A DNA stretch of 64,000 nucleotides. Origin: Escherichia phage I29. The DNA lies in the sequence record ON286975; one strand, 5' to 3'. The notes below the pieces were generated by a model that searched no databases, was not told the origin of the DNA, and saw only the letters and a program-made list of their open reading frames with translations. Shown piece by piece: positions 15,742-63,501 of this stretch; positions within the stretch are counted from its first letter, which is position 1; every line of letters starts with the position of its first letter. Both the position numbers and the translations under genes were made by a program.

Positions 15742-15770
15742 TTGACTAATAGTATCAGATAATCTATAAT
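15742..15770 (+). promoter_or_regulatory. sigma70-like promoter
   Basis: TTGACT-17-TATAAT. Confidence 0.6.
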
Positions 15771-41709: not shown

Positions 41710-42320
41710 GTTGCCTTATTGTTACAGATAAAATAATTGTATTGTTAATTATTTCTTATCTTTCTCTTAGTCATCTAATGATTCCAGTCAGTATAGTAAT
41801 GTACAGTAAACATTAGACGACTAAAGATTTCTCTGTTTATGATAACTCACCGTGATAATTTCAGACTGTTTACGAAAAATGTTGACACCTAAGCTGATTT
41901 ATGCTATGCAGTTTACACGAATAATTATTTTATGCAGGTATTGACTATTCCGTTATTCTATGGTTGGAATAAATACTTAGTAGGCTATAGAATGGCGAGC
42001 GTACGTAAATTCTGAGATCTGGCGGCTATAGTTATACTCGATTTTTCACGTAGAACACGCTTTTGTGGTTATGTAAGTGTATGACTTATAAAGATTTTTA
42101 GTTGTTGACAAGATACTGAAGATGTGCATCAGGTTAAATTTTATGCAATAGCTGCATTACGTGCAATTTTGGAAGGAAAAACGTGTAAAAATGGCCCTGC
42201 TACCACACAATGAAAGATTATGCAATAGCTATTTTACATGTATATTTGTACAGTGTGTGGGATTGATGGCTAGTCAATTATTCCACTTGCCAGGTAGGGC
42301 CGTTTATGGTAGGAGAAGAG

Positions 42321-42934: not shown

Positions 42935-43198
42935 TTATTTGTTATTCATCCAGTTTTCCCAAGCTGCCTGATAATCTGCCTCACTGCGGCGGATCTCTTC
43001 TTGCTCTTCAAGCCGGATCTCTTCTTCCAGGTACCCCAAGATATCGGCTTTTTTGGTCTGGCGTAACATCCAATCATCTTTTTTGCGAGTGAAGATCTTA
43101 TAAGCTTTCTCGCAAACCTCTTTTTTGCTACCTTTCTGGACTTCAAGAACACGATAAGCCATATATTGAACTAATTTGAGCTGATCAAGACGTTTCAT
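42935..43198 (-). CDS. hypothetical protein
   Basis: AAGAGG RBS, upstream hairpin. Confidence 0.45.
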   Translation of the reverse strand: MKRLDQLKLVQYMAYRVLEVQKGSKKEVCEKAYKIFTRKKDDWMLRQTKKADILGYLEEEIRLEEQEEIRRSEADYQAAWENWMNNK

Positions 43199-43260
43199 GA
43201 TGTTTTTCCTCTTTATGTGGTTTTTGTTTAGTGGGCCTTTTGGCCCGTGTCATTATCTTA

Positions 43261-43533
43261 TTACTTACGGCGGCAGAATTCAAGCGTTTTTAATTGATAA
43301 TCTTCCTCAGCCTGGAGTACAACCGCCTCGATCATTTCGTTGGCATTGTTGAAGCCATATCCTTTAGCGAATTCATCCGCACCACCTTCGTGATCATGTT
43401 CTGCGTTCATCGCTTCCACAAAATGGAATTCAAGATTATTGAGGTAGGGGCTTGATGTTCCGTCCTCTTTTTCAATGAGATCCCAAATAGCATTAAAACG
43501 TGATTCGACTTCTTGGTTAATCCAACTTGACAC
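43261..43533 (-). CDS. hypothetical acidic protein
   Basis: GTG start with AGAGAGG RBS; promoter TTGACA-17-TAACAT at ~43585-43613 and 5'-UTR hairpin. Confidence 0.45.
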   Translation of the reverse strand: MSSWINQEVESRFNAIWDLIEKEDGTSSPYLNNLEFHFVEAMNAEHDHEGGADEFAKGYGFNNANEMIEAVVLQAEEDYQLKTLEFCRRK

Positions 43534-43747
43534 GGCGTTTTCCTCTCTTCTGGTTGTGTGGGCACTTTTGCCCTTTCAAGATAAATGTTACCTCACCCCA
43601 TGGCAGATGTCAACGGTTTTTATAGTTCTTATATGACAGGCAGGCCCGGTGATTGTCTCCCCCTGTTCCCAAGTGCCGCCCGTTTAATAAGAATAGCAAA
43701 AGGGGCCGAACAAGTCAACCCCAAAATCAGTACCAAAACACTTTTAT

Positions 43748-44059
43748 TTATACGGTCCGATCATTGGCCTTTGTCCAGGACCTGGCGATCCGTTTCCCGG
43801 TCACCTGGAACGGAGGCTGCATTGTGTGTAATGAGTCCAGCGTAAGGGAGGACCGTTTACGGCGTATCTTCAGGATCGCTAACGTATTGTCCATCTCACG
43901 GCCAGGTCCTGGGCGGTATGGTGTGCCTCCAGCGTTAAGGTTGATGATCTCATGTATTGAGATCCGGCGTTGTTTTGCTTCCGCATCTTTGAAGATAGCC
44001 AGCGGAGGCGCTATGCGTTGCCGATACCAATCTAAAACGGTTGGCGTAATAGCGATCAT
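43748..44059 (-). CDS. hypothetical protein
   Basis: ORF coupled to upstream stop; weak. Confidence 0.3.
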   Translation of the reverse strand: MIAITPTVLDWYRQRIAPPLAIFKDAEAKQRRISIHEIINLNAGGTPYRPGPGREMDNTLAILKIRRKRSSLTLDSLHTMQPPFQVTGKRIARSWTKANDRTV

Positions 44060-44247
44060 ATTTTACCCCCTATGTAGTCCGGTCGGTTTTTCTCTGTCAT
44101 GCGCTTTAGCAATTCTTGAATAATCCCTATTGCGGTCAATGTCTCATCTTCACGCTTTGAGTCAACATAATCAGGATCGTTTATAACTTTTGTCTGATTA
44201 TGATATCTCAATACCGCCAACACTTTTACAGCTTCATCAGTGGTCAT
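44056..44247 (-). CDS. hypothetical protein
   Basis: ORF in arm orientation. Confidence 0.35.
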   Translation of the reverse strand: MTTDEAVKVLAVLRYHNQTKVINDPDYVDSKREDETLTAIGIIQELLKRMTEKNRPDYIGGKI

Positions 44248-44392
44248 TATCGCACCTAAAACAGTAAGTTAATATATAACACCAGATCGCTGACCACTAG
44301 AACAGCACGGATCAGCACATACCTAACCATAAGGGGAAAGAGCGCCAATATTGCCACCACAATCCCAAAGGTGATGATTATCTTTCTCATGG

Positions 44393-44677
44393 TTAACGGT
44401 TTACGTAAGCTTTACCGTTTACGGTGATGGGCAAATCTTCCAGGTCTGGATCTTCCTTAAGGTCGCGAGCAAGCTCACCGCACCGGACACCCTCGAATCC
44501 GTAGTACTCTGTTGTGCCGTCCTTAAAAGTTTTAGCGGCAAGGCATAAGCGATAAGTAACCCCGATTCGATTGACGGCATGAATATCCGTTAGATTAACC
44601 TCTTTTGCCAGCTCTTTAGCCATTACAGGCGCATTAAGTCCAACAACCAGGGCAACCACTGCGATCATCTTTTTCAT
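44393..44677 (-). CDS. small secreted/periplasmic protein
   Basis: Signal peptide MKKMIAVVALVVGLNAPVMA. Confidence 0.5.
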   Translation of the reverse strand: MKKMIAVVALVVGLNAPVMAKELAKEVNLTDIHAVNRIGVTYRLCLAAKTFKDGTTEYYGFEGVRCGELARDLKEDPDLEDLPITVNGKAYVNR

Positions 44678-44768
44678 TGTGTCTATCCTCTTTCTGCTAC
44701 GTTTAAGGCGGCGGTAACCGTCTGTTTATGCCTTGTTGGTTAATTTTCGGGTATCGGTATAAATTAAA

Positions 44769-44984
44769 CTATGCTGTACGCTCAACTATAACAACGGTTT
44801 GAGGGATCTCACCTTCCACCACTATCAAGGCTTTTTTCTGCGTGATGGATATCTTTACCCGTTGCAGCGTGGCGGTGAAGTCTTTCATTTCGTCACGTGG
44901 TGTTTTAGTGCAATACCAGATCTCAGGCTTGCCGATCTGCAAGTTGCGTAAAAATTCTGTTTTGCCTGTTTTGTTAGTGATCAT
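44769..44984 (-). CDS. hypothetical protein
   Basis: ORF in arm orientation. Confidence 0.4.
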   Translation of the reverse strand: MITNKTGKTEFLRNLQIGKPEIWYCTKTPRDEMKDFTATLQRVKISITQKKALIVVEGEIPQTVVIVERTA

Positions 44985-44993
44985 TTGCCAACC

Positions 44994-45098
44994 TCACCCG
45001 ATACCGTTGGAAGATAAGATCACATTAGCCATGGTTGCAATCAGGCCAATACCCAGGGCAATAACCAGGATCACCGCATCAATTAATTTCTGTTTCAT
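44994..45098 (-). CDS. small hydrophobic peptide (34 aa)
   Basis: AGAGGAAAA RBS; single predicted transmembrane helix; below ORF-track cut-off. Confidence 0.4.
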   Translation of the reverse strand: MKQKLIDAVILVIALGIGLIATMANVILSSNGIG

Positions 45099-45187
45099 TT
45101 TGTTTTCCTCTTCTTGTTCCAGGTGGCGGACCATTCCACCGCCTTATGTATTATGCTTTGTAAGATGGTTGTTTGTTTTCAAACTAT

Positions 45188-45368
45188 TTTAACGATAATC
45201 ATCGTACGCTTTATTAACCTGGCGAATATAACATTCAAAAGCCAGATCAATAGATTTATATTCACGGATATACTCACCATAGGAAACCACATACATTTCT
45301 ATAGCTTCCTCATATGCGAGGAGAATAGAATCCAAGCCTACGATCTCAGTCTTTGCAATAATAGCCAT
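45188..45368 (-). CDS. hypothetical small protein (59 aa)
   Basis: AAGAGGATAAAA RBS; own promoter and 5'-UTR hairpin. Confidence 0.4.
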
Positions 45369-45415
45369 GATTTTTATCCTCTTTGTGGTTGGTGGGGCTT
45401 GCCCCTTTGATTTAT

Positions 45416-45443
45416 ATACTACAGTCTTATATGGTCATGTCAA
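45416..45443 (-). promoter_or_regulatory. sigma70-like promoter
   Basis: TTGACA-16-TAGTAT on the minus strand. Confidence 0.5.
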
Positions 45444-45673
45444 CTATTTTCAAAAAATTTTTCTGCTGTGATATTTTTCCCGGTAGGATTGGCTACTTTT
45501 AAAATTCTATCATGCACCGGACGCCCGAAAGAATAAGATCCGTATACAGTAAACCAATAATCGCCGTCAGGTTGTACTATTACCGCCGCATATGGTACGC
45601 CTTTTTCGTTTTTGCTGACAAAATAGATCACATTGCCATTAATAGCCTCAGCGCGTTTAATTTGTTCCATCAT
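45440..45673 (-). CDS. hypothetical protein
   Basis: ORF in arm orientation. Confidence 0.4.
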   Translation of the reverse strand: MMEQIKRAEAINGNVIYFVSKNEKGVPYAAVIVQPDGDYWFTVYGSYSFGRPVHDRILKVANPTGKNITAEKFFENS

Positions 45674-45727
45674 GATGATTTACCTCTCTTTATTTTCATA
45701 ATTGGGGCCTTTTCGGCCCCGCCAGGT

Positions 45728-46012
45728 TTATTTATTGATAGCGTGCAGCGGGAAAGGTACGCCAGGTTGATAGATAACTTTTACAACCTCATCAGGGCAA
45801 AAGAAATTGCAGAATTCACCCTGATAAGCCTCATCCTCTTTTAATTCTTCATCAACATACTGGAAAAAGTAGTCAATGCTTGGATAATCCTGACCGGGAT
45901 TATATTCAACCATGGTTAATAACAATTCTTGATCATTCCGTACGATATGCATACCAGCTTTTAAGTATTTGGCTTCCATTTCTACTACATCGCCAACGGT
46001 AACAATAGCCAT
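45728..46012 (-). CDS. hypothetical acidic protein
   Basis: ORF in arm orientation. Confidence 0.4.
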   Translation of the reverse strand: MAIVTVGDVVEMEAKYLKAGMHIVRNDQELLLTMVEYNPGQDYPSIDYFFQYVDEELKEDEAYQGEFCNFFCPDEVVKVIYQPGVPFPLHAINK

Positions 46013-46217
46013 GGTTTTAACTCCTATCTATCCGGTTAATGATTGGAGGCCTCACCGCCCCCGACACCCTTTATTATCCATATTGTAGGACTTGATGCAA
46101 GTACTTCTTTAAAAATTTTTTAAGCGCCTTGGGGGCCGCTGTAACGCCAAAATAATAAAGGCTATGCAACCGCATAGCCTTTATGTGATTATATCGCTGC
46201 AGGCCCTGCCAGGGGCC

Positions 46218-46568
46218 TTATTTTGCATTCTTTCCTATATTGCCGCTACGGTACCAGCGTTTACGGTGAAAATGGTAATAATCACCATCGGCATTAAACA
46301 TCAGATGATTTTCAATAACCAGCTTACGAAGGTGGGCCGGATCTTGTTCCATTCTTGCCAGATTCTGGCGGCTGTTACGTAAGCGGATAAATTCCATATT
46401 CAGGCCGTTGATTGCAGCATGGATGTCAAAGTAACCACCTTTGAGACGTTCACGCATGGCGTTAAGCTCAACACAATATACAGATTTCTCACAAATCAAG
46501 GTATTAGCCAGGGCGCGGACCTGGGCAAGGGGGTTAAGCTCATTAAGGTAATATAGTTTTACTTTCAT
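46218..46568 (-). CDS. hypothetical protein
   Basis: ORF in arm orientation. Confidence 0.4.
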   Translation of the reverse strand: MKVKLYYLNELNPLAQVRALANTLICEKSVYCVELNAMRERLKGGYFDIHAAINGLNMEFIRLRNSRQNLARMEQDPAHLRKLVIENHLMFNADGDYYHFHRKRWYRSGNIGKNAK

Positions 46569-46585
46569 AAAATCACCTGCTGAAA

Positions 46586-46891
46586 TTAGTTTGAGAAAAC
46601 ATCGTTCACAATAGCGATCACAATGCCGCCCACCTTGTCACGGTCAACAATGCACAAATCACCATAGATCATGTGGTAGTCTGGATGATCTTTGACGGAA
46701 TAGTCGATAAGTGTTTTCTTGTCATCCAGCTTACTAACTTCCATTCTCATAACGATATGAGAATCATCAAAGGCATTATTCCGAAAAGTCATAACCTGAC
46801 CGCCAGGGCACCCGGTGATTTCCACCTCCACGCCGTCTACGATCTGACCATCAAAGAAATAAAGATTATTAGCCTGGATAAACATGATCAT
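46586..46891 (-). CDS. hypothetical protein
   Basis: Start at MIMFIQ after AAAGGAG RBS. Confidence 0.4.
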   Translation of the reverse strand: MIMFIQANNLYFFDGQIVDGVEVEITGCPGGQVMTFRNNAFDDSHIVMRMEVSKLDDKKTLIDYSVKDHPDYHMIYGDLCIVDRDKVGGIVIAIVNDVFSN

Positions 46892-46930
46892 TACTCCTTT
46901 TTGCACTGATTATTTTAACAGGGTTTAAAT

Positions 46931-46974
46931 TTACTTTATTGATGGCCCTGGAGTCAAGGCCATCTAAAAATAAA
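46931..46974 (-). promoter_or_regulatory. conserved 44-bp promoter/palindrome element, copy 1
   Basis: Minus strand TTGACT-18-TAAATT with embedded palindrome gatggcc...ggccatc. Confidence 0.5.
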
Positions 46975-46976
46975 TT

Positions 46977-47177
46977 TTACAGGCCTACAATCTCTTTAAT
47001 TCGTTTTACTGCTGCCTCAGCGCCTTGAGGGTAAAAATTATGGTAACCAATCACGCGAGTGATACTAATCGCCGTTTGATGATCTTCATAATCACCTTTA
47101 AAGATTTCTTGACCGTCAATCAGCACGGCAATTTTTTCTTCTTTTTTGAAGTTAATAACGCGGATATTGTTGCTCAT
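46977..47177 (-). CDS. hypothetical protein
   Basis: ORF with promoter TTGCAA-18-TAATAT and 5'-UTR hairpin. Confidence 0.4.
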   Translation of the reverse strand: MSNNIRVINFKKEEKIAVLIDGQEIFKGDYEDHQTAISITRVIGYHNFYPQGAEAAVKRIKEIVGL

Positions 47178-47279
47178 TTTGTTTCTCCTTTTGGAACTTT
47201 GTCTATGCGGTGGGGAGTGTCTCCCCGTTGATTGATATTATCCATATTCTGGATCGGATTGCAACACTCAGGGAGAAAA

Positions 47280-47312
47280 AATTTGAAAAGTTAGGCCCCA
47301 GGGATCGGGGCC
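47280..47312 (-). terminator. terminator-like hairpin
   Basis: ggcccc-agggatc-ggggcc with U-rich tail on the minus strand. Confidence 0.4.
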
Positions 47313-47655
47313 GTTATCAGTTACTTACAGCGATAAAATACATCCCTACGCCTAACAATATTTCAAGGGCGATGATCTCAAGCCATACCATAACACGGCG
47401 CGCCTTATCGGTGCGGGGCTTATCCTTGGGTGTCATCGTCTCCCCCTTTCCTCCTGTTAGCAGTGACGTGGTTTGCAATGGCCCCCAGGAGTATTATCAC
47501 CACGCACATTACAAGAAAAATTATCTCTGTCGTTGTTCGATCCATTGTTATAAAATTCCTTAAGATCAGGCCTGAAAATAAAGCTTTCGTTATTGAATCC
47601 ATCCCGCCAGGCGGCTGGCTTCAAATCTTCACTAAAGGGGTTAATTAACGTGGCA

Positions 47656-48027
47656 TTATTTAAACGGCTGGTCCACATATTTTCTATTCCTCTCAAATAG
47701 GCGATCCGCCTCAGTTAAACAAATCTCATGGGCGTGATCTCTGGTTTTAGCTTCATCGAAAACCTGTTGTGCAAGGCTGCAACGTAGGGAGACTGGAAGA
47801 TCGCTGTAGTAGGCGTTGACAAATGTTTGAGCGTCGTACAGGTCTGAAAATACTTTACCCTTTCTATTATTCCCCTTGTCAACAATTGCAAGGATAACCA
47901 ATACAATAGTTGCAACCACTCCCAGGAAAATAGATATAACAAACCATAGAAAAGCGGATCTACCCATCTTGCCAGCGATCCAGGCGTTGAACAAGGCAAC
48001 TACTACAGCCAAAATAATAAATTCCAT
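47656..48027 (-). CDS. membrane protein (two predicted TM helices)
   Basis: Start at MEFIIL after AAGAGG RBS. Confidence 0.45.
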   Translation of the reverse strand: MEFIILAVVVALFNAWIAGKMGRSAFLWFVISIFLGVVATIVLVILAIVDKGNNRKGKVFSDLYDAQTFVNAYYSDLPVSLRCSLAQQVFDEAKTRDHAHEICLTEADRLFERNRKYVDQPFK

Positions 48028-48091
48028 TCTATGTACCTCTTTTGCAGTTCTGTTTAACAATAAGGCGGCAAATATGCCGCCTGTTACCTGA

Positions 48092-48472
48092 TTAAAAATT
48101 ATCGCCGTAAATCTTTCCGCTTTCTGCCCACACCACCACGCGGGGCATGTTATCCCATACGTCTTGTTTTAGATTTAACGCGTGCAATTCTTCTGTGGTG
48201 CTCATACCAGGCACGGGCTGATTGTATACTGCAAAACGACCACCTGCATAATCATAAGCTAAAGTCAAATCGCACTGAATCATTTTCTTGATCATGGCGT
48301 TAAGCATAGCGTTAGCCGCGTACTGGTCACGTTTTAAAGGCAACTCTTTGATTAGTTTGCGATAGTTTTCGATATGGTCGCACACTGTTTCACGTGGAAG
48401 ATCTTTCATATCTTCACGGAATGTAACCAGGTTAAACATAACGGTGTCAATAGCTTTAGTAGTGTTTTTCAT
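48092..48472 (-). CDS. hypothetical protein
   Basis: AAGAGGAAAA RBS. Confidence 0.45.
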   Translation of the reverse strand: MKNTTKAIDTVMFNLVTFREDMKDLPRETVCDHIENYRKLIKELPLKRDQYAANAMLNAMIKKMIQCDLTLAYDYAGGRFAVYNQPVPGMSTTEELHALNLKQDVWDNMPRVVVWAESGKIYGDNF

Positions 48473-48527
48473 GATGTTTTCCTCTTTGTTTTGTGTGGGG
48501 GCAAGTCATCTCGCCCCCTTAAGTTTT

Positions 48528-48555
48528 AATATAGCAGGTTTTTAGATTATTGCAA
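48528..48555 (-). promoter_or_regulatory. sigma70-like promoter with 5'-UTR hairpin
   Basis: TTGCAA-16-TATATT, then gggggc...gccccc hairpin at 48496-48517. Confidence 0.5.
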
Positions 48556-48563
48556 CACTTTAT

Positions 48564-49187
48564 TTATGAAAAACTCATCTCTCCATATTCATCCACATCA
48601 AACCGCCAATCATTGGCTTCAATAAGGCCGATCAAGTTTTCGGTAGTAAACTGTTCAAGATAGGCCTCCTCCAGGTCTACATAAACCTTGCGGGATAGCT
48701 CCCGTACCGTCTCGGTGATCAGCTCTTCCAGATCTTCCACTTTATTTTCTTGTTTTGCGGTCAGATCTAGCCAGGTAGTATCAATATATCCGCTTACAGT
48801 GTTTTCATGGCTGTAATGGCTGTACTTGTCGCGTTCAACACTGGCTGATAGTTCGCCATCGTGCATTGTGCCGAACAAGTGACGAATTGATCGGAACTTG
48901 GTCAGGGCCTTGACTTTACGCAAGAATTTCTCTAAGTCTACATTTTCAGCACTAATTGACGCGCCATCGCCTTGACACCAAAAGCCGGACCAATGTACAT
49001 CGGTATCTTCAAGGCCGTACTCTGGAAAAACTTGTTCTTTATAATATTCAATTACACTTTCTGCGAAAAAATCCTCTCCGCTGTGTTCTTCTCTTTCGCG
49101 GACCATTTCAATAGCTTTTTCTTTTTGTTCGTCGGTCAGCACGTCGAAAGATAAATTGCAACCTGTGGTAATGTTAACGGTAGTCAT
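48564..49187 (-). CDS. hypothetical acidic protein
   Basis: ORF in arm orientation. Confidence 0.45.
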   Translation of the reverse strand: MTTVNITTGCNLSFDVLTDEQKEKAIEMVREREEHSGEDFFAESVIEYYKEQVFPEYGLEDTDVHWSGFWCQGDGASISAENVDLEKFLRKVKALTKFRSIRHLFGTMHDGELSASVERDKYSHYSHENTVSGYIDTTWLDLTAKQENKVEDLEELITETVRELSRKVYVDLEEAYLEQFTTENLIGLIEANDWRFDVDEYGEMSFS

Positions 49188-49244
49188 GATATTTTCTCCT
49201 ATTTTCTTTGTTAGTGGCGGGAAGTTTTCTCGCCTGTGTGTTTA

Positions 49245-49272
49245 AGTATACTTATTGAGGCTTACTTGTCAA
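49245..49272 (-). promoter_or_regulatory. sigma70-like promoter with 5'-UTR hairpin
   Basis: TTGACA-16-TATACT, hairpin at 49217-49235. Confidence 0.55.
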
Positions 49273-49522
49273 CACTATTTTTTAAATTATTGTGGCGTAA
49301 AATGTTTAGAATCTCTTCAACGTCATCAACACGGCGGCAATTTTTAAACGCTACCAATTGCCCCATGATTTTAATCACTGGGCGGCCTTGCCAGTGCCCC
49401 TGGAGAAAGCGCGCCTTGACTTTATCGGTGGAACTATCACGCCACCAAATGGCCTTGTTGTTGCAGTAGTAAAAATTATTCAGGACAACATCAACTTTAT
49501 CAAAATTTTTTAATTTACGCAT
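49262..49522 (-). CDS. hypothetical protein
   Basis: ORF with promoter TTGACA-16-TATACT at ~49556-49582. Confidence 0.4.
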   Translation of the reverse strand: MRKLKNFDKVDVVLNNFYYCNNKAIWWRDSSTDKVKARFLQGHWQGRPVIKIMGQLVAFKNCRRVDDVEEILNILRHNNLKNSVDK

Positions 49523-49724
49523 GGCGTTTACTCCTTTCTCTCTTTGATGTGGTTAGTATAGCTAACCTGTTTAAGATGTCAAGCTTTAAATAAAATCACT
49601 GTCAATGATATTTTTAACGCCATAAAACGGCCCTAAGCGATGTTTTCAGGTTAAAGGGGGGCGATTGCATAGGTGGGGCCTTTTTGGCGCTTACAGGGCC
49701 AACCAGGGGCGCTATTCGTAGGAT

Positions 49725-49755
49725 AGAAATAAAAAGCCCCGCACAATGGCGGGGC
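49725..49755 (-). terminator. intrinsic terminator
   Basis: gccccgc-cattgt-gcggggc with U-tract on the minus strand. Confidence 0.55.
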
Positions 49756-49763
49756 GTTGGTTG

Positions 49764-49961
49764 TTATTTGTCTTTATGGCGGTATCGTTCTGCCTGTCGT
49801 TCACGTTCCAAAAGTAGGCCAGGCAATTTACGATCATAATGATTCCGCCAGATCTTCCCAAATCTTTTTGGCTTATTCAGTTTATTGTTGCGCTGGCGAC
49901 GTTCCGGCAACTCTTCGGAATCATGAGGGCGCTTTACAATTTTTTCGAAATTAATTTTCAT
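49764..49961 (-). CDS. hypothetical basic protein
   Basis: Start at MKINFEK assumed. Confidence 0.35.
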   Translation of the reverse strand: MKINFEKIVKRPHDSEELPERRQRNNKLNKPKRFGKIWRNHYDRKLPGLLLERERQAERYRHKDK

Positions 49962-50322
49962 AACTTCCCCCCTTACTGATCTCAATATTTGCCTGAATCG
50001 CCCGGATACGCCGTTTTATAACCTCCTGATCCTTGCAATCATATCCCCAAAAGTCTACGATTTTTGCGCCTCCAGCCTTTAGGCGGTATAGTGTTTCTTG
50101 CATCTTGTAGGCCGGGATCGGTCGCGGTGTTACCTGGTCGCCCTTCTCATTCTTGTACTTGATAATGTAGTCTTCATTGTCGTTGAATACCCAAAATGGG
50201 TATTCTGTGAGCGCGTTGCTCTCTTTTTCGTTTTTAGATTGGATCTTGTTTACAATTAAAGCCGTAGCAATAGCGCCAATAATAAAACTTGCCCCACTGA
50301 TCATGTTACTTTCTCCTTTCAT
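49951..50322 (-). CDS. hypothetical membrane-anchored protein
   Basis: N-terminal hydrophobic helix. Confidence 0.4.
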   Translation of the reverse strand: MKGESNMISGASFIIGAIATALIVNKIQSKNEKESNALTEYPFWVFNDNEDYIIKYKNEKGDQVTPRPIPAYKMQETLYRLKAGGAKIVDFWGYDCKDQEVIKRRIRAIQANIEISKGGSYEN

Positions 50323-50380
50323 TGTATTGATAAACTATCTTTATAGATGGCCCTGCTACCAGGACCACCGAAAAAACAGT

Positions 50381-50626
50381 TTATTTGACGATACCGACAA
50401 AACAGATCCCGCCTTCCCCTATATAGGCAATATCGGTAATTTTATAATTTGTCAAGATCCGCGTGTTCAGCTCATTAATAAAATCTGTCATCGCGTTGGT
50501 GTAGTTGTCTTCCGTGTCTAAGGCATAATCCCAGGTGTAAACCTTTTTACGTCCGAAGCCTTTTACCATGATACGGGCGCTTTTGGTGTTGGTAGGGGCA
50601 TAATATTTGGTGATTAGTGCTGCCAT
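50381..50626 (-). CDS. hypothetical protein
   Basis: AGGAG RBS. Confidence 0.45.
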   Translation of the reverse strand: MAALITKYYAPTNTKSARIMVKGFGRKKVYTWDYALDTEDNYTNAMTDFINELNTRILTNYKITDIAYIGEGGICFVGIVK

Positions 50627-50670
50627 GGTTTTAACTCCTATGCATTAGTTCAGTGTTAACAGTATAAAGT

Positions 50671-50714
50671 TTACTTTATTGATGGCCCTGGAGTCAAGGC
50701 CATCTAAAAATAAT
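50671..50714 (-). promoter_or_regulatory. conserved 44-bp promoter/palindrome element, copy 2
   Basis: TTGACT-18-TAAACT with the same palindrome. Confidence 0.5.
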
Positions 50715-50715
50715 C

Positions 50716-51066
50716 TTACTCGTTTTCTTCCAGCTCCGCAAGCTCTTCTTTTGCTTCTTCCAACTCTGTCTGTAATTCCTGGTATTCTTCATCGTCCTCA
50801 ATATCCAGGCTGTCGATGTAGTCGCTAAATCCGCAGCGGTAAGCGATAGGATCTAGCTCTTTGAGGATACGCGACGGAAGAAAAGAAATGTTTCCGATCA
50901 TAATTTCGCCGTAGATCTCGTCTAACCATTCATCATAGTTTTCGTCGTACTTGTCCTCGTCGATTTCAAAGTTATCGATCTTGTCTTCAAGTTCTGCAAT
51001 CTGTTTTTTCAGGGCGGCGATCTGCAGGGCTTTTTCTTCGGCGGTCATAGTGATGGAAGTATTCAT
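50716..51066 (-). CDS. hypothetical acidic coiled-coil protein
   Basis: ORF in arm orientation. Confidence 0.45.
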   Translation of the reverse strand: MNTSITMTAEEKALQIAALKKQIAELEDKIDNFEIDEDKYDENYDEWLDEIYGEIMIGNISFLPSRILKELDPIAYRCGFSDYIDSLDIEDDEEYQELQTELEEAKEELAELEENE

Positions 51067-51118
51067 AATGTTTTCTCCTTTTGGTGTTCTGGGAAGTTTT
51101 CCCGTTTATGTGCTTAGT

Positions 51119-51146
51119 ATTATACTGATTTAAGTTAGCTTGTCAA
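51119..51146 (-). promoter_or_regulatory. sigma70-like promoter with 5'-UTR hairpin
   Basis: TTGACA-16-TATAAT, gggaaaacttccc hairpin, AAAAGGAG RBS. Confidence 0.6.
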
Positions 51147-51258
51147 TTAAAAGTTTAAGAAAAATTTTGCGAAATCATTGGCGCTACTCATCAACATTTG
51201 CGCCAGGATGTAACCAATGATGCAAACGATAATAGTTACCTTTGTGTGCTGGCGTGTA
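51139..51258 (-). CDS. small hydrophobic peptide (39 aa)
   Basis: AAGGAGG RBS; one predicted TM helix; below ORF-track cut-off. Confidence 0.4.
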
Positions 51259-51295
51259 GTGCTCATCTTCAAGCCTCCTTTTTAACTGGGATTAG

Positions 51296-51340
51296 TTTAC
51301 TTTACTGATGGCCCTGGAGTCAAGGCCATCTAAAAATAAA
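51296..51340 (-). promoter_or_regulatory. conserved 44-bp promoter/palindrome element, copy 3
   Basis: TTGACT-18-TAAACT, near-identical to copies 1 and 2. Confidence 0.5.
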
Positions 51341-51341
51341 C

Positions 51342-51737
51342 TCAATAAGTTTTTAGTACTTTCCCGTCCAATCTGTCAAGCTGGATCTCGATAGCTGCAG
51401 AAAACCTATTGTAAACCACATCGCCCAAGGAGTCCAGCCAATCTATGACGTTATACACCTGCTCTTTATTCTTGCAAGTCCGGATCCGTTTCATTACGTA
51501 AGACGGATCAATATTAGCGCTCTCGTTGTTGTGGTCATGCTCCTGGCCTGCTGCATTAGTTATAGATTTTACAACCACCTGAAAAGGCTTTAAGGTGCCT
51601 TTTGCGTTCATCTCACGCGCTTTTGCGGCGCGGTTGTTATATGTTACACAACGGCGGCAAATGTTGACCAAATGCATGTCAATAATTTTTTCATCGTTTG
51701 CCAGTTCGTTCATGATGCGGCGTACGTTCTTATTCAT
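51342..51737 (-). CDS. hypothetical protein
   Basis: ORF in arm orientation. Confidence 0.45.
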   Translation of the reverse strand: MNKNVRRIMNELANDEKIIDMHLVNICRRCVTYNNRAAKAREMNAKGTLKPFQVVVKSITNAAGQEHDHNNESANIDPSYVMKRIRTCKNKEQVYNVIDWLDSLGDVVYNRFSAAIEIQLDRLDGKVLKTY

Positions 51738-51785
51738 GATCTTTTTCCTTTGTGTTGGCGGGAAACATTCCCGCCTTTTGTGATT

Positions 51786-51813
51786 AGTTTACTTGAATTT
51801 TGCAGCGTGTCAA
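51786..51813 (-). promoter_or_regulatory. sigma70-like promoter with 5'-UTR hairpin
   Basis: TTGACA-16-TAAACT, hairpin ggcggga...tcccgcc at 51751-51769. Confidence 0.55.
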
Positions 51814-51819
51814 CAATTT

Positions 51820-52218
51820 TTATTCGTGGGCGCATGTTACAATGTGCTTTTTATAGCCCAGGTGGTTAGCAAGTGCCGACAAAAACTCTTCTTCATAGAT
51901 CCAGCCGTTGGCAGTGATCCCCATAGCATTTAATGCGCTCTCAAGTGCTGCATTAGCTTTATCGTAACCGTGACCGCTCGCCTTCCCGCCAGTATAACCG
52001 TACTTATTGTTCTTGTTGTCGTGAATCCAAAAAACGCAGTATTGAGTGTTCCCGCTGGCGGCGGCATAATACCGGATCTCAGCTACTTCGTGCAAATTAT
52101 TGTCATCGTCCAGGCCCACCAGATTATAAGCCTTGTAAAATCCACGATCCCGGCGGCAGTTCTTGACATCAGAAAAAGAAAAGTCCGCATTATCAAAATT
52201 AAAGGTAGTGGTTTTCAT
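51820..52218 (-). CDS. hypothetical protein
   Basis: Promoter TTGACA-18-TACACT upstream. Confidence 0.45.
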   Translation of the reverse strand: MKTTTFNFDNADFSFSDVKNCRRDRGFYKAYNLVGLDDDNNLHEVAEIRYYAAASGNTQYCVFWIHDNKNNKYGYTGGKASGHGYDKANAALESALNAMGITANGWIYEEEFLSALANHLGYKKHIVTCAHE

Positions 52219-52282
52219 GATTTTATCCTCTTAGTGTCTTTTGTGCTTTTAGTGTATTTGGTGTCAGACTATATGTCAATAC

Positions 52283-52480
52283 TTATTTTTTATTAAACCA
52301 GTGGTTGATCTGGCCTTTTGTCAGGGCGCAACGATTAAGCTGTTGCCGGGTATAGCTCTGACCGCGACGGAATTTATAAAGGCCTTGCCCGTTGTTGATG
52401 GTTACGTCCACCTGGCAAACCATTTGATCGGTGACGGCCTGGTAAGTGTTGCGACGTACTTTAATTCCGTAGGCGTTCAT
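52283..52480 (-). CDS. hypothetical protein
   Basis: AGAGAGG RBS. Confidence 0.4.
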   Translation of the reverse strand: MNAYGIKVRRNTYQAVTDQMVCQVDVTINNGQGLYKFRRGQSYTRQQLNRCALTKGQINHWFNKK

Positions 52481-52857
52481 GATTTTTTATCCTCTCTGTT
52501 AATTAGTGTGGTGTTGTTCACCTTGCGAGGATAAGAATAACAGAACTCTCCGAGCTGTCAACCATTAGTTAGAATTATTTTTTGGGAAGAATTCTCCAGC
52601 CGCCGCCCCTGCCAGGTTAACCATCATTTTTCGTACTCTTCTTTATGTTCCAACGCTCCCGCCATAGCCTTTTCAACCAGGGTGATAACTTCAGCGGCGT
52701 TGATCGCTACATTTTCCAGGGGATTATATTACTTTTCATTTTTGTACCTCCTCTTCAATTGTTACCTGCCCTGTAGCATAGGCCTGCCAGGCTGGCCCCG
52801 CCAGGTTGCAACGGTTAGCGCATCAGGTTAGAAAAATTTTTTGAAAAGTGTTGACAG

Positions 52858-53115
52858 CGGCCCCGCCAGGTGGCACAATATACCTATCGAAAGGACGGCA
52901 GGCACCGGTGACGGGGGAGACAACCACCGGGGATGGGCGCTGCATAAAATGAGAACGGTTATCATTATCATTTAAAAATTTATGCAAAAAATCCTTGCTT
53001 TCTTTGTCCTGTGTGATACTATAATAACAAGCCGGGGCAACAGGGGCCGGGAGACAATCACCGGGGGTGCCCGTTATTCTGCAAACGAGAATGATTATCA
53101 TTCAAAATTCTAAAT
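52858..53115 (+). other. two paralogous sRNA-like elements, each with an upstream promoter-like sequence
   Basis: Two ~60-bp imperfectly matching units (gggagacaaCcaccgggg... / gggagacaaTcaccgggg...) each ending in an ...atcattatcatt... / ...attatcattc... A/T stretch; TTGACA and TTGCTT-16-TACTAT upstream; strand assignment uncertain. Confidence 0.3.
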
Positions 53116-53228
53116 GAGAACTCCTCGCATTTAATAAATTTAATTAGCGTGCTAATTACCCTCCGTAACAATTTCCTATAAAACAGTATCCCATAAAATA
53201 TTCCCATATAGAAATTTTAAAAATCCAT

Positions 53229-53395
53229 TTCTGAAAACGAAAAATCGATTTCGTTCCCAAAAATTTCAGGTCGAGCTCCGGAACGATTTCCAGAAAATCC
53301 GATTCAGAAAACGAAAAACAGATCGAGTACTGAGAAATTTATCGAGAAAAATTTTCAGAAAATTCAATCTTTGAAACGAAAAACAGATCGAGTAC
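53229..53395. repeat. three tandem ~60-bp iterons
   Basis: Consensus ttcaGAAAACGAAAAAcaGATCGAGTAC repeated three times. Confidence 0.6.
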
Positions 53396-53640
53396 CCGGA
53401 AAGCTGTACCGCAACCTCAAGATAGTGGTTAGACTATTACCATAAAAAGTCAAGGGTAAGTGGAGGAAGTTCTAGTAGAAGGATGTGAGCATGTGCGGGA
53501 AATCTGTAGTGGTGGTCTGGAATATGGTGCAAACGATAGGATGAGCGATTCAGCTTGTCGCGCCTACTCTGAAAAATCCATTTTAGTTTTCGATCCATTT
53601 TCTGATTTTCTAAGAATTTTAAAATATCTGGTCCGGTGAA

Positions 53641-53677
53641 ATATCAAAAGGAGGAAATCCATTTTAGAAATCCTCCT
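53641..53677 (-). terminator. terminator-like hairpin ending the polymerase-side operon
   Basis: aggagga...tcctcct stem with U-rich tail on the minus strand. Confidence 0.4.
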
Positions 53678-53707
53678 GATCTCTAGCAACCTGATAACTT
53701 AAAAATA

Positions 53708-62305: not shown

Positions 62306-62659
62306 TTAGTGACAATCACCCCAATTACGACCACACAGGTATTCACCTGTGATCTGGAACGGGACGCCCATCATTTTAGAAGCTTGCCAGAAGCAATGCA
62401 CCACCATTTCACCCACAGGGCTCCAGATAAGTTCAAGCTTTCCGTCATCGTTCAGGATAGGATCGTACACCGTGTTTCCGTCTCTGTCAACCACTTCGTT
62501 TCCGTCCTCATCCTTGCGTGCCTTTTTGTACTTATGACCGTCGAACACATGAAGTTTGGCCTCCTGCTCTGCCTTAAATGCTTCCAGTTCTTCGATTGTG
62601 TCGAAGGTGTACACAGTCTTATACTTAGGCGTGTCAGGGACCTGAAGTTGGTACTCATC
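62306..62659 (-). CDS. DNA polymerase I family (family A), 3' exon
   Basis: Begins DEYQLQV, which completes an HDE motif with exon 1; ends GRNWGDCH like the Pol I C-terminus GENWDQAH. Confidence 0.75.
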   Translation of the reverse strand, partial: DEYQLQVPDTPKYKTVYTFDTIEELEAFKAEQEAKLHVFDGHKYKKARKDEDGNEVVDRDGNTVYDPILNDDGKLELIWSPVGEMVVHCFWQASKMMGVPFQITGEYLCGRNWGDCH

Positions 62660-63501
62660 CAATAGTTCAGGTAGGTCGTTAAGCTACCCCGCACCATTAC
62701 GTGCACAGCCATACGGTTTCCTGTATGGATCGGACTATCTCATTACCTTGTTACCAAGGCACCTCTCATTTCGACCGCACTTGCTGGCCTACTCTACTCG
62801 CTTCTTCACACCAAACTATGTTGGAGCTATGCTTTCGATAGTCTCTGAACGTTACTACCAGGTGTAGTTTTTAGAGATATGTTTCCACTGTCTTCTTTGC
62901 TTTATGGCTCTGACCGTCTCATAAGGATACCCAAGATCCCTAATCTCGCATTGTCGTAGACCACTCTGCAACAGTTCGCAAATCTCCGTTACCTCATCCT
63001 CGGTCAGCACAGCGTTGGCATTATACTCACCGACTGGCCTTACTCTGAGTTCATTATCGTAGGCGTGTTTGATATTTCCACCAGGGGTAGTCCATTCCAG
63101 GTTCCAGTGTGCATTGTTGTACTTATTTCCATCCTTATGGTTCACCCATGTGAGCTTTTCAGGATCAGGGTTCGGTACAAAGCATTCAGCAACCAAGTGG
63201 TGGACACCTTTTGTGCACTGCTTCCCCTCGATGAGCATGGTTACGCAAAGGTAACCTCTACCATTATCAAAACAAAACATTGTTGTATGATCACGTTTCG
63301 ATAAAGGTATTGTTCCATCATCAAACACGGTATACCCGTGATAATCAGCTGATCTAGCCATTTTAACTACACCCCTTTAGTCTTCGCTGCGGATTAGCAT
63401 ATTGAGCTTTTACCATGTTCAGGTGTAAAAGTCAACTTAGCCTTCCCGTCAATTAAAGAGGTTTTCGACGTGCATCACTGCACGAAGCCACAATGTTATT
63501 T
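62660..63501 (-). mobile_element. group I intron (~840 nt) carrying an HNH homing endonuclease ORF
   Basis: Core elements P aattgacgggaagg (63441-63454), Q aatccgcagc (63386-63395), R gttcagagacta (62839-62850), S gagatagtcc (62732-62741) on the minus strand; exon 1 ends in T, intron ends in G. Confidence 0.8.
62855..63361 (-). CDS. HNH homing endonuclease (intron-encoded)
   Basis: HHLVAECFVPNP...VNHKDGNKYNNAHWNLEW HNH motif; ORF lies between Q and R elements. Confidence 0.8.
   Translation of the reverse strand: MARSADYHGYTVFDDGTIPLSKRDHTTMFCFDNGRGYLCVTMLIEGKQCTKGVHHLVAECFVPNPDPEKLTWVNHKDGNKYNNAHWNLEWTTPGGNIKHAYDNELRVRPVGEYNANAVLTEDEVTEICELLQSGLRQCEIRDLGYPYETVRAIKQRRQWKHISKNYTW

Follow-up and report, generated by a model that had tools for sequence, protein, structure and literature searches.

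Promoter-linked hairpins with a predicted 5'-proximal position in small-gene cassettes of the early leftward arm of Escherichia phage I29

Introduction

In the leftward arm of Escherichia phage I29 (sequence record ON286975), small genes on the minus strand are found behind a consensus promoter followed by a short GC-rich hairpin, which lies between the promoter and the ribosome-binding site. A preliminary description of the 64,000-nucleotide stretch analysed here (hereafter referred to as the window, whose positions are used throughout) proposed that nearly every small gene between 43200 and 52300 is organized in this way, and that the hairpins are 5' stabilisers, processing sites or regulator-binding structures. 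This raises two questions, namely how general the arrangement is, and what such a hairpin does for the gene behind it. I report here that the architecture is real, that its full form precedes about a third of the genes in this region, and that the hairpins may be 5'-proximal stabilisers of messenger RNA (mRNA).

The window comes from a Vequintavirus. Its region 43200-52300 shows 98.5% identity to Shigella phage CM1, and 92–95% identity to many rV5-like phages of the same genus. Genes are located on the plus strand up to ∼39 kb and, from ∼42.3 kb to the end, exclusively on the minus strand, where they run down from the DNA polymerase genes; this minus-strand stretch is part of the rV5 transcription unit "genes 238-164". 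The genes between 43 and 52 kb are small ORFans, for which eight of ten tested proteins had no match in Pfam and one had only sub-threshold matches, and the gene content of the arm is mosaic among relatives. This distal part of the early (leftward) arm of the rV5-like phage is plastic and rich in ORFans. The rV5 genome paper predicts promoters P168, P174, P185, P186, P192, P194, P195 and P195A, as well as terminators t177, t181 and t184, and is silent on hairpins 3' of its promoters. Most of the cassette promoters described below are already known from these predictions (P168, P174, P185, P192 and P194); the hairpins were not described for rV5.

Results and Discussion

A class of promoter and hairpin cassettes

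A gene list was built for the arm, and each intergenic gap on the minus strand was inspected. Nine genes are preceded by one plan, hereafter referred to as class I: a TTGACA-like -35 box, 16–17 nucleotides (nt), a -10 box, 9–11 nt (once 14), a GC hairpin, an A/C-rich spacer, a Shine-Dalgarno (SD) sequence and a start codon (Table 1). The -35 boxes are located at 51813, 51146, 49272, 48555, 47264, 45443 and 43613, with weaker ones at 46100 and ∼45181. The promoters are real consensus matches at the seven clear sites and weaker matches at the other two, and the four hairpins quoted in the preliminary description are all present (51775-51757, 48518-48497, 51104-51089 and 43246-43233).

The class I stems are 4–9 base pairs (bp) long and GC-rich, with a loop of 3–5 nt. 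The 20 nt upstream of the -35 box are 55–90% A+T (at least 75% in seven of the nine cassettes), and usually hold the upstream stop codon. The spacer between hairpin and SD consists of 56% A, 25% C, 10% G and 9% T, against 32, 20, 23 and 25% respectively in the whole region. Each unit is mono- or bicistronic, and the next GC hairpin bounds it on the 3' side, within ∼70 nt of the stop codon.

This architecture is real and far above chance, because a composite scan of positions 43100-52650 (promoter with at least 9 of 12 matches, hairpin with a folding free energy ≤ -5 starting 5–16 nt after the -10 box, then SD and start codon) returned six instances on the minus strand and none on the plus strand, against a mean of 0.07 and a maximum of 2 in 200 dinucleotide shuffles. 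Its extent is smaller than first proposed: the full design precedes nine of the 28 genes in 43.2–52.3 kb (seven clear, two weak), about a third rather than nearly all. Among the remaining genes, two have a hairpin without a convincing promoter (class II) and four have a 47-nt repeat covering the -35 box (class III, see below); two promoters (52279 and 49582) are without a downstream hairpin, and about nine genes overlap or abut their neighbour, leaving no intergenic region. Some GC hairpin is present in 17 of the 19 intergenic gaps of at least 50 nt. Elsewhere in the window, on the plus arm and on the minus arm between 52.5 and 62 kb, strong promoters have short, hairpin-less leaders with 22–54 nt from the -10 box to the start codon, apart from exceptions at 15742 and 33371. 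The design is local to the arm's most plastic part.

Table 1. Cassettes, hairpins, repeats, terminators and hairpin-less promoters of the arm. Elements are listed in the direction of transcription, numbers between hexamers are nt, and z refers to the fold of the 5' untranslated region relative to shuffled sequences.
Feature	Position	Strand	Downstream gene	Elements	Fold and remarks
Class I cassette	51738..51813	-	51342-51737	TTGACA (51813-51808), 16 nt, TAAACT (51791-51786), 10 nt, hairpin GGCGGGAATGTTTCCCGCC (51775-51757), AACACA spacer, AAGGA, ATG	-14.6 kcal/mol, z = -4.3; rV5 P194 equivalent
Class I cassette	51067..51146	-	50716-51066	TTGACA-16-TATAAT (12/12), 14-nt leader with CACATAAA, hairpin CGGGAAAACTTCCCAG (51104-51089), AACACCAA, AAGGAG, ATG	z = -1.9; rV5 P192
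Class I cassette	49188..49272	-	48564-49187	TTGACA-16-TATACT, 10 nt, hairpin GGCGAGAAAACTTCCCGCC (49234-49216), A-rich spacer, AGGAG, ATG	z = -2.7; A.C mismatch of the hairpin is G-C in relatives; rV5 P185
Class I cassette	48473..48555	-	48092-48472	TTGCAA-16-TATATT (TG-extended), 9 nt, hairpin GGGGGCGAGATGACTTGCCCCC (48518-48497), ACACAAAACAAA, GAGGA, ATG	-18.4 kcal/mol, z = -5.4; loop inverted between orthologues
Class I cassette	47178..47264	-	46977-47177	TTGCAA-16-GATAAT, 10 nt, hairpin GGGGAGACACTCCCC (47226-47212), 21-nt spacer, AAGGAG, ATG	z = -3.7; directly behind terminator 47312-47294; stem GGGGA/TCCCC constant and loop variable across 12 orthologues
Class I cassette, weaker	46013..46100	-	45728-46012	TTGCAT-16-GATAAT, 10 nt, hairpin GGGGGCGGTGAGGCCTCC (46062-46045), spacer, AGGAG, ATG	z = -0.6, no different from shuffles; behind terminator 46184-46155
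Class I cassette	45369..45443	-	45189-45368	TTGACA-16-TAGTAT, 10 nt, hairpin GGGGCAAGCCCC (45405-45394; in relatives GGGGCAACAAGCCCC), ACCAACCACAAA, GAGGA, ATG	z = -1.1; rV5 P174
Cassette with doubtful promoter	45099..45186	-	44994-45098	CATAAT -10 without a good -35 at normal spacing, then hairpin GGCGGTGGAATGGTCCGCCACC (45143-45122), spacer, GAGGA, ATG	z = -3.0
Class I cassette	43534..43613	-	43261-43533	TTGACA-17-TAACAT, 11 nt, hairpin GGGCAAAAGTGCCC (43573-43560), ACACAACCAGAAGA, GAGGA, GTG	z = -2.3; behind terminator 43722-43702; rV5 P168
Class II hairpin	43233..43246	-	42935-43198	GGGCCAAAAGGCCC	weak promoter-like match only (TTGAAT-17-TAAGAT, 8/12)
Class II hairpin	45704..45720	-	45440-45673	GGGGCCGAAAAGGCCCC	without convincing promoter; repeat family D6
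Class III copy 1	51295..51341	-		imperfect hairpin of 47 nt with an AU-rich lower stem, an internal loop and a GC-rich upper stem GATGGCCTTG/CAGGGCCATC	TTGACT at apex, TAAACT in 3' arm
Class III copy 2	50669..50715	-		near-identical repeat	
Class III copy 3	46928..46976	-		near-identical repeat	
Class III variant	50334..50380	-		GGTGGTCCTG/CAGGGCCATC	hairpin kept via G.U wobbles, TTGACT -35 lost
Canonical intrinsic terminator	49736..49755	-		GCCCCGCCATTGTGCGGGGC then TTTTTATTTC	contrast class
Canonical terminator	48082-48063	-		U-tract	rV5 t184
Canonical terminator	47312-47294	-		U-tract	rV5 t181
Canonical terminator	46184-46155	-		U-tract	rV5 t177
Canonical terminator	43722-43702	-		U-tract	
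Promoter without downstream hairpin	52251..52279	-		TTGACA-17-TACACT	unstructured 26-nt leader
Promoter without downstream hairpin	49582-49555	-			same kind

The hairpins keep their distance and their stems

The homologous arm was compared between the window, CM1, nine further Vequintavirus genomes or contigs, and two phi92-like phages (KKE7M, and Klebsiella phage FKP3 of the genus Justusliebigvirus). A search of IMG/VR with a 207-amino acid (aa) protein identified only two close relatives, and six distant loci that were unusable. The same plan is found before genes without a counterpart in the window, for example as TTGACA-16-TAAGAT gtatcacata GGGCGGCAATAGTGCCGCTC and as TTGACA-16-TAAACT gttaatcaa GGCGGGAATGATTCCCGCC. 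In 30 of 43 unique composites of promoter, hairpin and SD (11 loci), the hairpin starts 9–11 nt after the -10 box, with a mode of 10. Grouped by downstream gene, the modal distance is 9–11 nt in 15 of 24 families from 12 phage loci (p = 1e-4 against a uniform distribution over 5–16 nt). These families include non-homologous cassettes in KKE7M and FKP3, and several of the outliers are due to weak AU pairs that lengthen the called stem.

For seven window cassettes and their orthologues (10–12 sequences per cassette), the mean pairwise difference per site was calculated from an alignment. It is 0.000 for the -35 box, 0.056 for the stem, 0.059 for the -10 box and 0.061 for the coding sequence, followed by the spacer and SD (0.092), the leader (0.094), the promoter spacer (0.104) and the loop (0.162). 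The hairpin is kept in every orthologue despite replacement, shortening, lengthening or inversion of the loop, and unrelated stem families are found at the same position, so that it is the structure and not the sequence that is kept.

Two cassettes have a hairpin that reads as the exact reverse complement of the orthologous one (GGCGGGAATGTTTCCCGCC against GGCGGGAAACATTCCCGCC, and GGGGCAAGACGTTTGCCCC against GGGGCAAACGTCTTGCCCC), and the orientation of the loop is therefore not selected. This indicates a DNA-level inversion of the palindrome, as could occur through template switching. The flipped hairpins are located at 51757-51775 and 48497-48518, as compared to loci L010, L001 and L005 of close relatives.

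Such inversions agree with the view that the hairpins are DNA-level palindromes without an RNA function, being either hitch-hikers of recombining promoter cassettes or themselves sites of recombination or template switching. The stems are nearly pure Watson-Crick (3 G.U among 218 pairs) and equally stable on both strands, breakpoints cluster at the cassettes, and hairpin families such as GGCGGGAA...TTCCCGCC recur before unrelated genes. However, the stems are 2–3 times more conserved than the loops and flanks, the resolvable crossovers are in the spacer and SD and not in the hairpin, and the precise spacing from the -10 box is kept in non-homologous cassettes of two subfamilies. I consider a purely DNA-level explanation improbable.

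The variety of the stems also bears on the proposed regulator sites, which could be either the target of an RNA-binding translational repressor, or an operator at +5 to +25 for shutting down the early promoters. A place just past the start site is typical of roadblock operators, and the half-sites GGCGGGAA/TTCCCGCC are common to several stems. However, the stems fall into at least four unrelated families, the half-sites stand at varying distances from each other (1, 3 or 5 nt), and the loops are free to change, two of them being inverted. On these grounds a sequence-specific operator is rejected, the regulator-binding option of the preliminary description is left unsupported, and a regulatory site of either kind appears very improbable.

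Class I hairpins and the terminators of the arm

Class I hairpins and intrinsic terminators share a GC stem of 4–9 bp and a loop of 3–5 nt, but class I lacks a sense-strand U-tract. The canonical terminators of the arm possess 4–8 T in the 10 nt after the stem, whereas 0–1 T is found in the 8 nt after the stem in eight of the nine class I hairpins. This bears out the earlier statement that most hairpins lack a U-tract and are unlikely to be terminators, and for want of a U-tract a reading of class I as sense-strand intrinsic terminators is rejected; the real terminators nearby do possess one. In addition, a canonical terminator is located 50–110 nt upstream of each of the promoters of cassettes 47264, 46100 and 43613. 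The hairpins of these three cassettes are therefore not needed to stop upstream transcription.

It has to be considered whether the hairpins end antisense (plus strand) transcription from the convergent rightward arm. Their plus-strand tails are T-rich, with 3–6 T in 8 nt, and a consensus scan flags four of them as terminator-like (51757, 49216, 51090 and 47208). This T-richness is, however, the complement of the A-rich region between -10 box and hairpin, and at least three consecutive T directly follow the stem in only three of nine cases. Moreover, the arm has no plus-strand genes, plus-strand promoter-like matches are scattered, weak and intragenic, and the fixed distance from the -10 box is left unexplained. 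I regard a role in antisense termination as highly unlikely.

Alternatively, the hairpins could act only on transcripts coming from upstream, as attenuators of the PeSL type (promoter-early stem-loops, a class of phage elements discussed below) or as 3'-end barriers, in which case their position behind a promoter would be incidental. This would account for the GC hairpin in 17 of 19 gaps, whether or not a promoter is present, and for the other hairpins of the arm that span the -35 box (class III) or the -10 box (49582, 59553 and 60840) and are thus outside the promoter's own transcript. The class III hairpin is clearly selected as sense RNA (see below), and a PeSL stem-loop was shown to cut lacZ expression like a strong terminator in vivo (PMC2839356). 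However, the fixed 9–11 nt from the -10 box is left unexplained, class I has no sense-strand U-tract, and three class I hairpins stand just behind U-tract terminators that already end the upstream transcripts. An action restricted to upstream transcripts is, in my view, rather unlikely.

A possible role in mRNA stability

The explanation that I favour, and to which I would give an about even chance, is that the class I hairpins are 5'-proximal mRNA stabilisers of the ompA or T7 gene 10 type, within self-contained early cassettes. It is suggested by their fixed distance from the -10 box, by stems that are conserved while the loops vary, and by the three cassettes located behind real terminators. 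Of the options raised in the preliminary description, that of a 5' stabiliser is thus supported indirectly, and that of a processing site is possible for the promoter-less hairpins and the 47-nt repeat.

In the proposed mechanism, the host sigma-70 RNA polymerase would start 7–8 nt after the -10 box, usually at an A that follows a pyrimidine, and the next 12–22 nt of the transcript would fold into the GC hairpin, leaving ∼2–5 unpaired nt at the 5' end. By analogy with the ompA, papA and T7 gene 10 leaders, such a stem-loop would hinder 5'-end-dependent decay (RppH, RNase E), and lengthen the life of very short, mostly monocistronic early mRNAs. The A/C-rich spacer, unable to pair nearby, would keep the strong SD open. 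Since class I hairpins have no U-tract, the polymerase would be expected to read through them. In these read-through transcripts, class I and class III hairpins would bracket each cistron, as possible barriers to 3' exonucleases after processing, and class I hairpins may therefore also protect 3' ends.

If the leader is taken to begin at the seventh nucleotide after the -10 box, it is predicted to contain a single hairpin and to be otherwise unstructured, with z-scores relative to shuffles of -0.6 to -5.4 (below -2.5 in five of nine). The leaders of three hairpin-less promoters are completely unstructured. From the SD to the AUG of class I leaders, the mean probability of being unpaired is 0.5–0.8. 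Assuming this canonical +7 start, the hairpin begins after 3–5 unpaired nt in seven of the nine window cassettes. Positions 7 and 8 after the -10 box are very often a pyrimidine followed by an A, as in gtatcac/ATA-GGGCGG and ataaatc/AAA-GGGG, and a start at this conserved A would leave only 2–3 unpaired nt at the 5' end.

There is precedent for such a role. 5'-terminal stem-loops are described as stabilising E. coli mRNA against 5'-end-dependent decay in the studies listed in PMC3997798 (Emory 1992, Bouvet 1992, Arnold 1998, Bricker 1999), and the 5' stem-loop of T7 gene 10 raises mRNA level and expression (PMC6146998). The class I cassettes share with ompA, papA and T7 gene 10 a short, stable hairpin without sequence requirement, followed by an open ribosome-binding region; stem-loops of that type start within ∼2–4 nt of the mRNA 5' end, and for class I 2–5 nt are predicted; the gene 10 hairpin is moreover, like those of class I, part of a phage promoter-leader unit. 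However, these are single, proven cases with mapped 5' ends, whereas the arrangement described here is repeated on many small early genes, with predicted starts and perhaps 3–5 unpaired nt.

Several observations speak against a stabilising role. About half of the strong promoters of the window are without such a hairpin, which is therefore optional, and could have been carried along by descent within a cassette family. Two hairpins lack a convincing promoter, and two window hairpins are weak (z = -0.6 and -1.1). No compensatory double substitutions were identified in the class I stems among the 10–12 sequences per cassette, the stems being essentially invariant at 92% genome identity. Because G.U pairs are rare and the sense and antisense folds are equally stable, with no asymmetry between them (11 vs 7, and 14 equal), it is not proven for class I whether sense RNA, DNA or antisense RNA is the selected form. 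The start sites and the counts of unpaired nt are predictions, and with 4–5 unpaired nt the 5' protection would be marginal; no mapped start sites or transcriptome for any Vequintavirus were found in the literature searched.

If the hairpins do stabilise, the arm would constitute a natural library of compact, portable cassettes (strong promoter, cap-like 5' hairpin, unstructured A/C leader and strong SD), by which phages plug in and express new small genes. It would also suggest that the protection of mRNA ends contributes to making an ORFan cassette transferable. In practical terms, these would be ready-made parts for synthetic biology.

A more specific proposal involves the Srd protein of phage T4, which boosts RNase E and thereby destroys host mRNA. 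A homologue of Srd (rV5 gp11, encoded outside the window) is carried by rV5-like phages. The hairpins might then provide a self-exemption, the capped early phage mRNAs escaping a 5'-end-dependent decay that the phage itself stimulates. I consider this distinctly unlikely. If true, it would amount to a cis-acting "self" mark on an entire class of mobile ORFan cassettes, swapped between two subfamilies as promoter-hairpin-gene-hairpin units.

The 47-nt repeat is conserved as an RNA hairpin

The class III repeat, found in 110 phage records, has a predicted fold with an ∼11-bp lower stem, an internal loop and a 10-bp upper stem. Across 22 distinct copies, 97.2% of cells are paired, against 36–57% when the partners are slid. 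In the lower stem, four pairs have changed on both sides (GC/AU, UA/CG, UA/AU and AU/UA), and in the upper stem all three variable pairs change via G.U wobbles that pair on the minus (sense) strand only. These two-sided changes and sense-only wobbles, and the retention of the hairpin in the variant that has lost TTGACT, argue for selection as sense RNA. The conserved feature is, judging from these patterns, a sense-strand RNA hairpin in transcripts from upstream. A further partial copy of the variant is located at 42186-42205.

The repeat has no U-tract on either strand, and could be a processing site or a 3' barrier. In phage Murica, two copies coincide with 45-nt features annotated "terminator", and such annotations of the repeat in related records deserve a second look. 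In KKE7M, a class I hairpin is found 10–11 nt after the TAAATT of a class III repeat, which suggests that the TTGACT-18-TAAA(C/T)T match can also act as a promoter.

The RNase III hairpins between the early genes of T7 are similar to class III in being intercistronic, ∼20 bp long and interrupted by an internal loop, and class III is conserved as sense RNA. Unlike these, it carries the TTGACT-18-TAAACT promoter-like match, and its cleavage is only putative. An RNase III site was also considered for the class I hairpins, and is rejected since their stems are only 4–9 bp.

Cassettes as mosaic joints, and comparison with PeSLs

When the window is set against 12 related loci, intergenic positions account for 16 of 31 homology breakpoints (expected, 23%; p = 6e-4), and most of the remaining ones fall no more than 20 nt from a gene end. 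In typing phage 14, naswa and Mangalyan, extra genes have the same spacer and SD on both flanks (window 43205-43232); in Murica and JES2013, an extra gene has a copy of the spacer, SD and ATG on either flank (window 45083-45114). The homology of KKE7M to the window is limited to patches the size of a gene. A patch with 90% identity begins exactly at the -35 box of promoter 51146 and stops where the class III repeat ends at 50664; it is therefore a promoter-hairpin-gene-hairpin unit in a phage of a different subfamily.

Short repeats (families D1, D4, D8, D14 and D17) link the cassettes. A 20-nt segment encompassing SD and start codon, ATAGGAGTTAAAACCATGGC on the gene strand, precedes two different genes (46008-46027 and 50622-50641), and other short spacer and SD segments are shared at 43204-43221, 48477-48494, 45093-45112 and 48467-48486. 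Such segments are candidate crossover sites. Because the cassettes share short sequences (promoter, hairpin families, spacer and SD, 47-nt repeat), they are also the points at which related phages gain, lose and exchange genes.

This is reminiscent of the PeSLs of T4-like phages, in which an AT-rich region precedes a consensus sigma-70 promoter associated with a polyG/polyC stem-loop (Arbiol et al., 2010, PMC2839356; Comeau et al., 2014, PMC4122927). Neighbouring PeSLs also give rise to mini-circles. Five subclasses are distinguished by the place of the stem-loop, namely upstream, over the -35 box, between the boxes, over the -10 box, or just downstream of it, and PeSLs cluster among ORFans and mark indel junctions between close relatives (PMC2839356). 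In the arm described here, the predicted promoters are likewise of the consensus sigma-70 type (9–12 of 12 matches, with an invariant -35 box), preceded by an AT-rich stretch with an upstream stop codon and accompanied by a stable Gn-loop-Cn stem-loop, SD and start codon. They cluster in a plastic region of small ORFans, and the junctions of indels or replacements between close relatives coincide with cassettes and are flanked on either side by homologous cassette sequence. Hairpins over the -35 box (class III), over the -10 box (49582, 59553 and 60840) and downstream of it (class I) are all represented. At promoters 60840-60812, 59553-59525 and 49582-49555 (minus strand), the stem-loop encloses the -10 hexamer, as in GGGCC-TAATATAAT-GGCCC, which matches the commonest PeSL subclass of T4-like phages.

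There are also clear differences. All described PeSLs are in T4-like (Tevenvirinae) genomes, whereas the present cassettes belong to Vequintavirinae and Stephanstirmvirinae. The commonest place of the PeSL stem-loop is between the -35 box and the -10 box, or over the latter, and that of the "downstream" subclass is just before the start site; class I, dominant here, is instead at a fixed 9–11 nt after the -10 box, inside the predicted transcript. PeSL stem-loops are read as terminators or attenuators, whereas class I has no U-tract and three of its members are behind real terminators. Finally, the homology between class I cassettes is short (18–26 nt), and only the 47-nt repeat offers a PeSL-like homology. 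The arm works like a PeSL-type cassette system with a new placement of the stem-loop, not as a proven member of the family, and the role of the stem-loop is probably different from that in PeSLs. New are the fixed placement close to the predicted 5' end, the probable role in stabilising mRNA, and the occurrence of such cassettes in Vequintavirinae and phi92-like phages. If the hairpins stabilise, the PeSL idea, that regulatory cassettes are the joints of phage mosaicism, would extend beyond T4-like phages to the Vequintavirinae and the phi92 group.

Other features of the window

At its gathering scores, Rfam 15 gave zero matches in the whole window, and only one sub-threshold, chance match at E ≤ 1 between 43000 and 52700; a transfer RNA scan found none. 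Among the ten proteins compared with Pfam, the only match above the cut-off was that of a 65-aa protein (49764-49961, minus strand) to Phage_1_1 (T7 gp1.1-like, E = 2.6e-11).

In the leader of gene 52283-52480 (52481-52533, minus strand), the gene's SD region (GAGGAUAA) has its complement in the first nt after promoter 52561 (UUAUCCUC), so that the primary transcript may have an occluded SD. Further upstream, the 606 nt of 53102-53707 are devoid of open reading frames (ORFs). Within this stretch are three ∼57-nt direct repeats (53207-53402), together with a 16-bp hairpin (53264-53227). The stretch is possibly an origin or some other cis element, and may be the counterpart of the "non-coding" box on the rV5 map. 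The family A DNA polymerase (62306-63361 and beyond, minus strand) is, according to the CM1 annotation, split into two ORFs by an HNH homing endonuclease gene (∼62855-63361). At the other end of the arm, the convergence zone between the two arms contains two 36-nt direct repeats, at 42136-42171 and 42213-42248, which are 75% identical.

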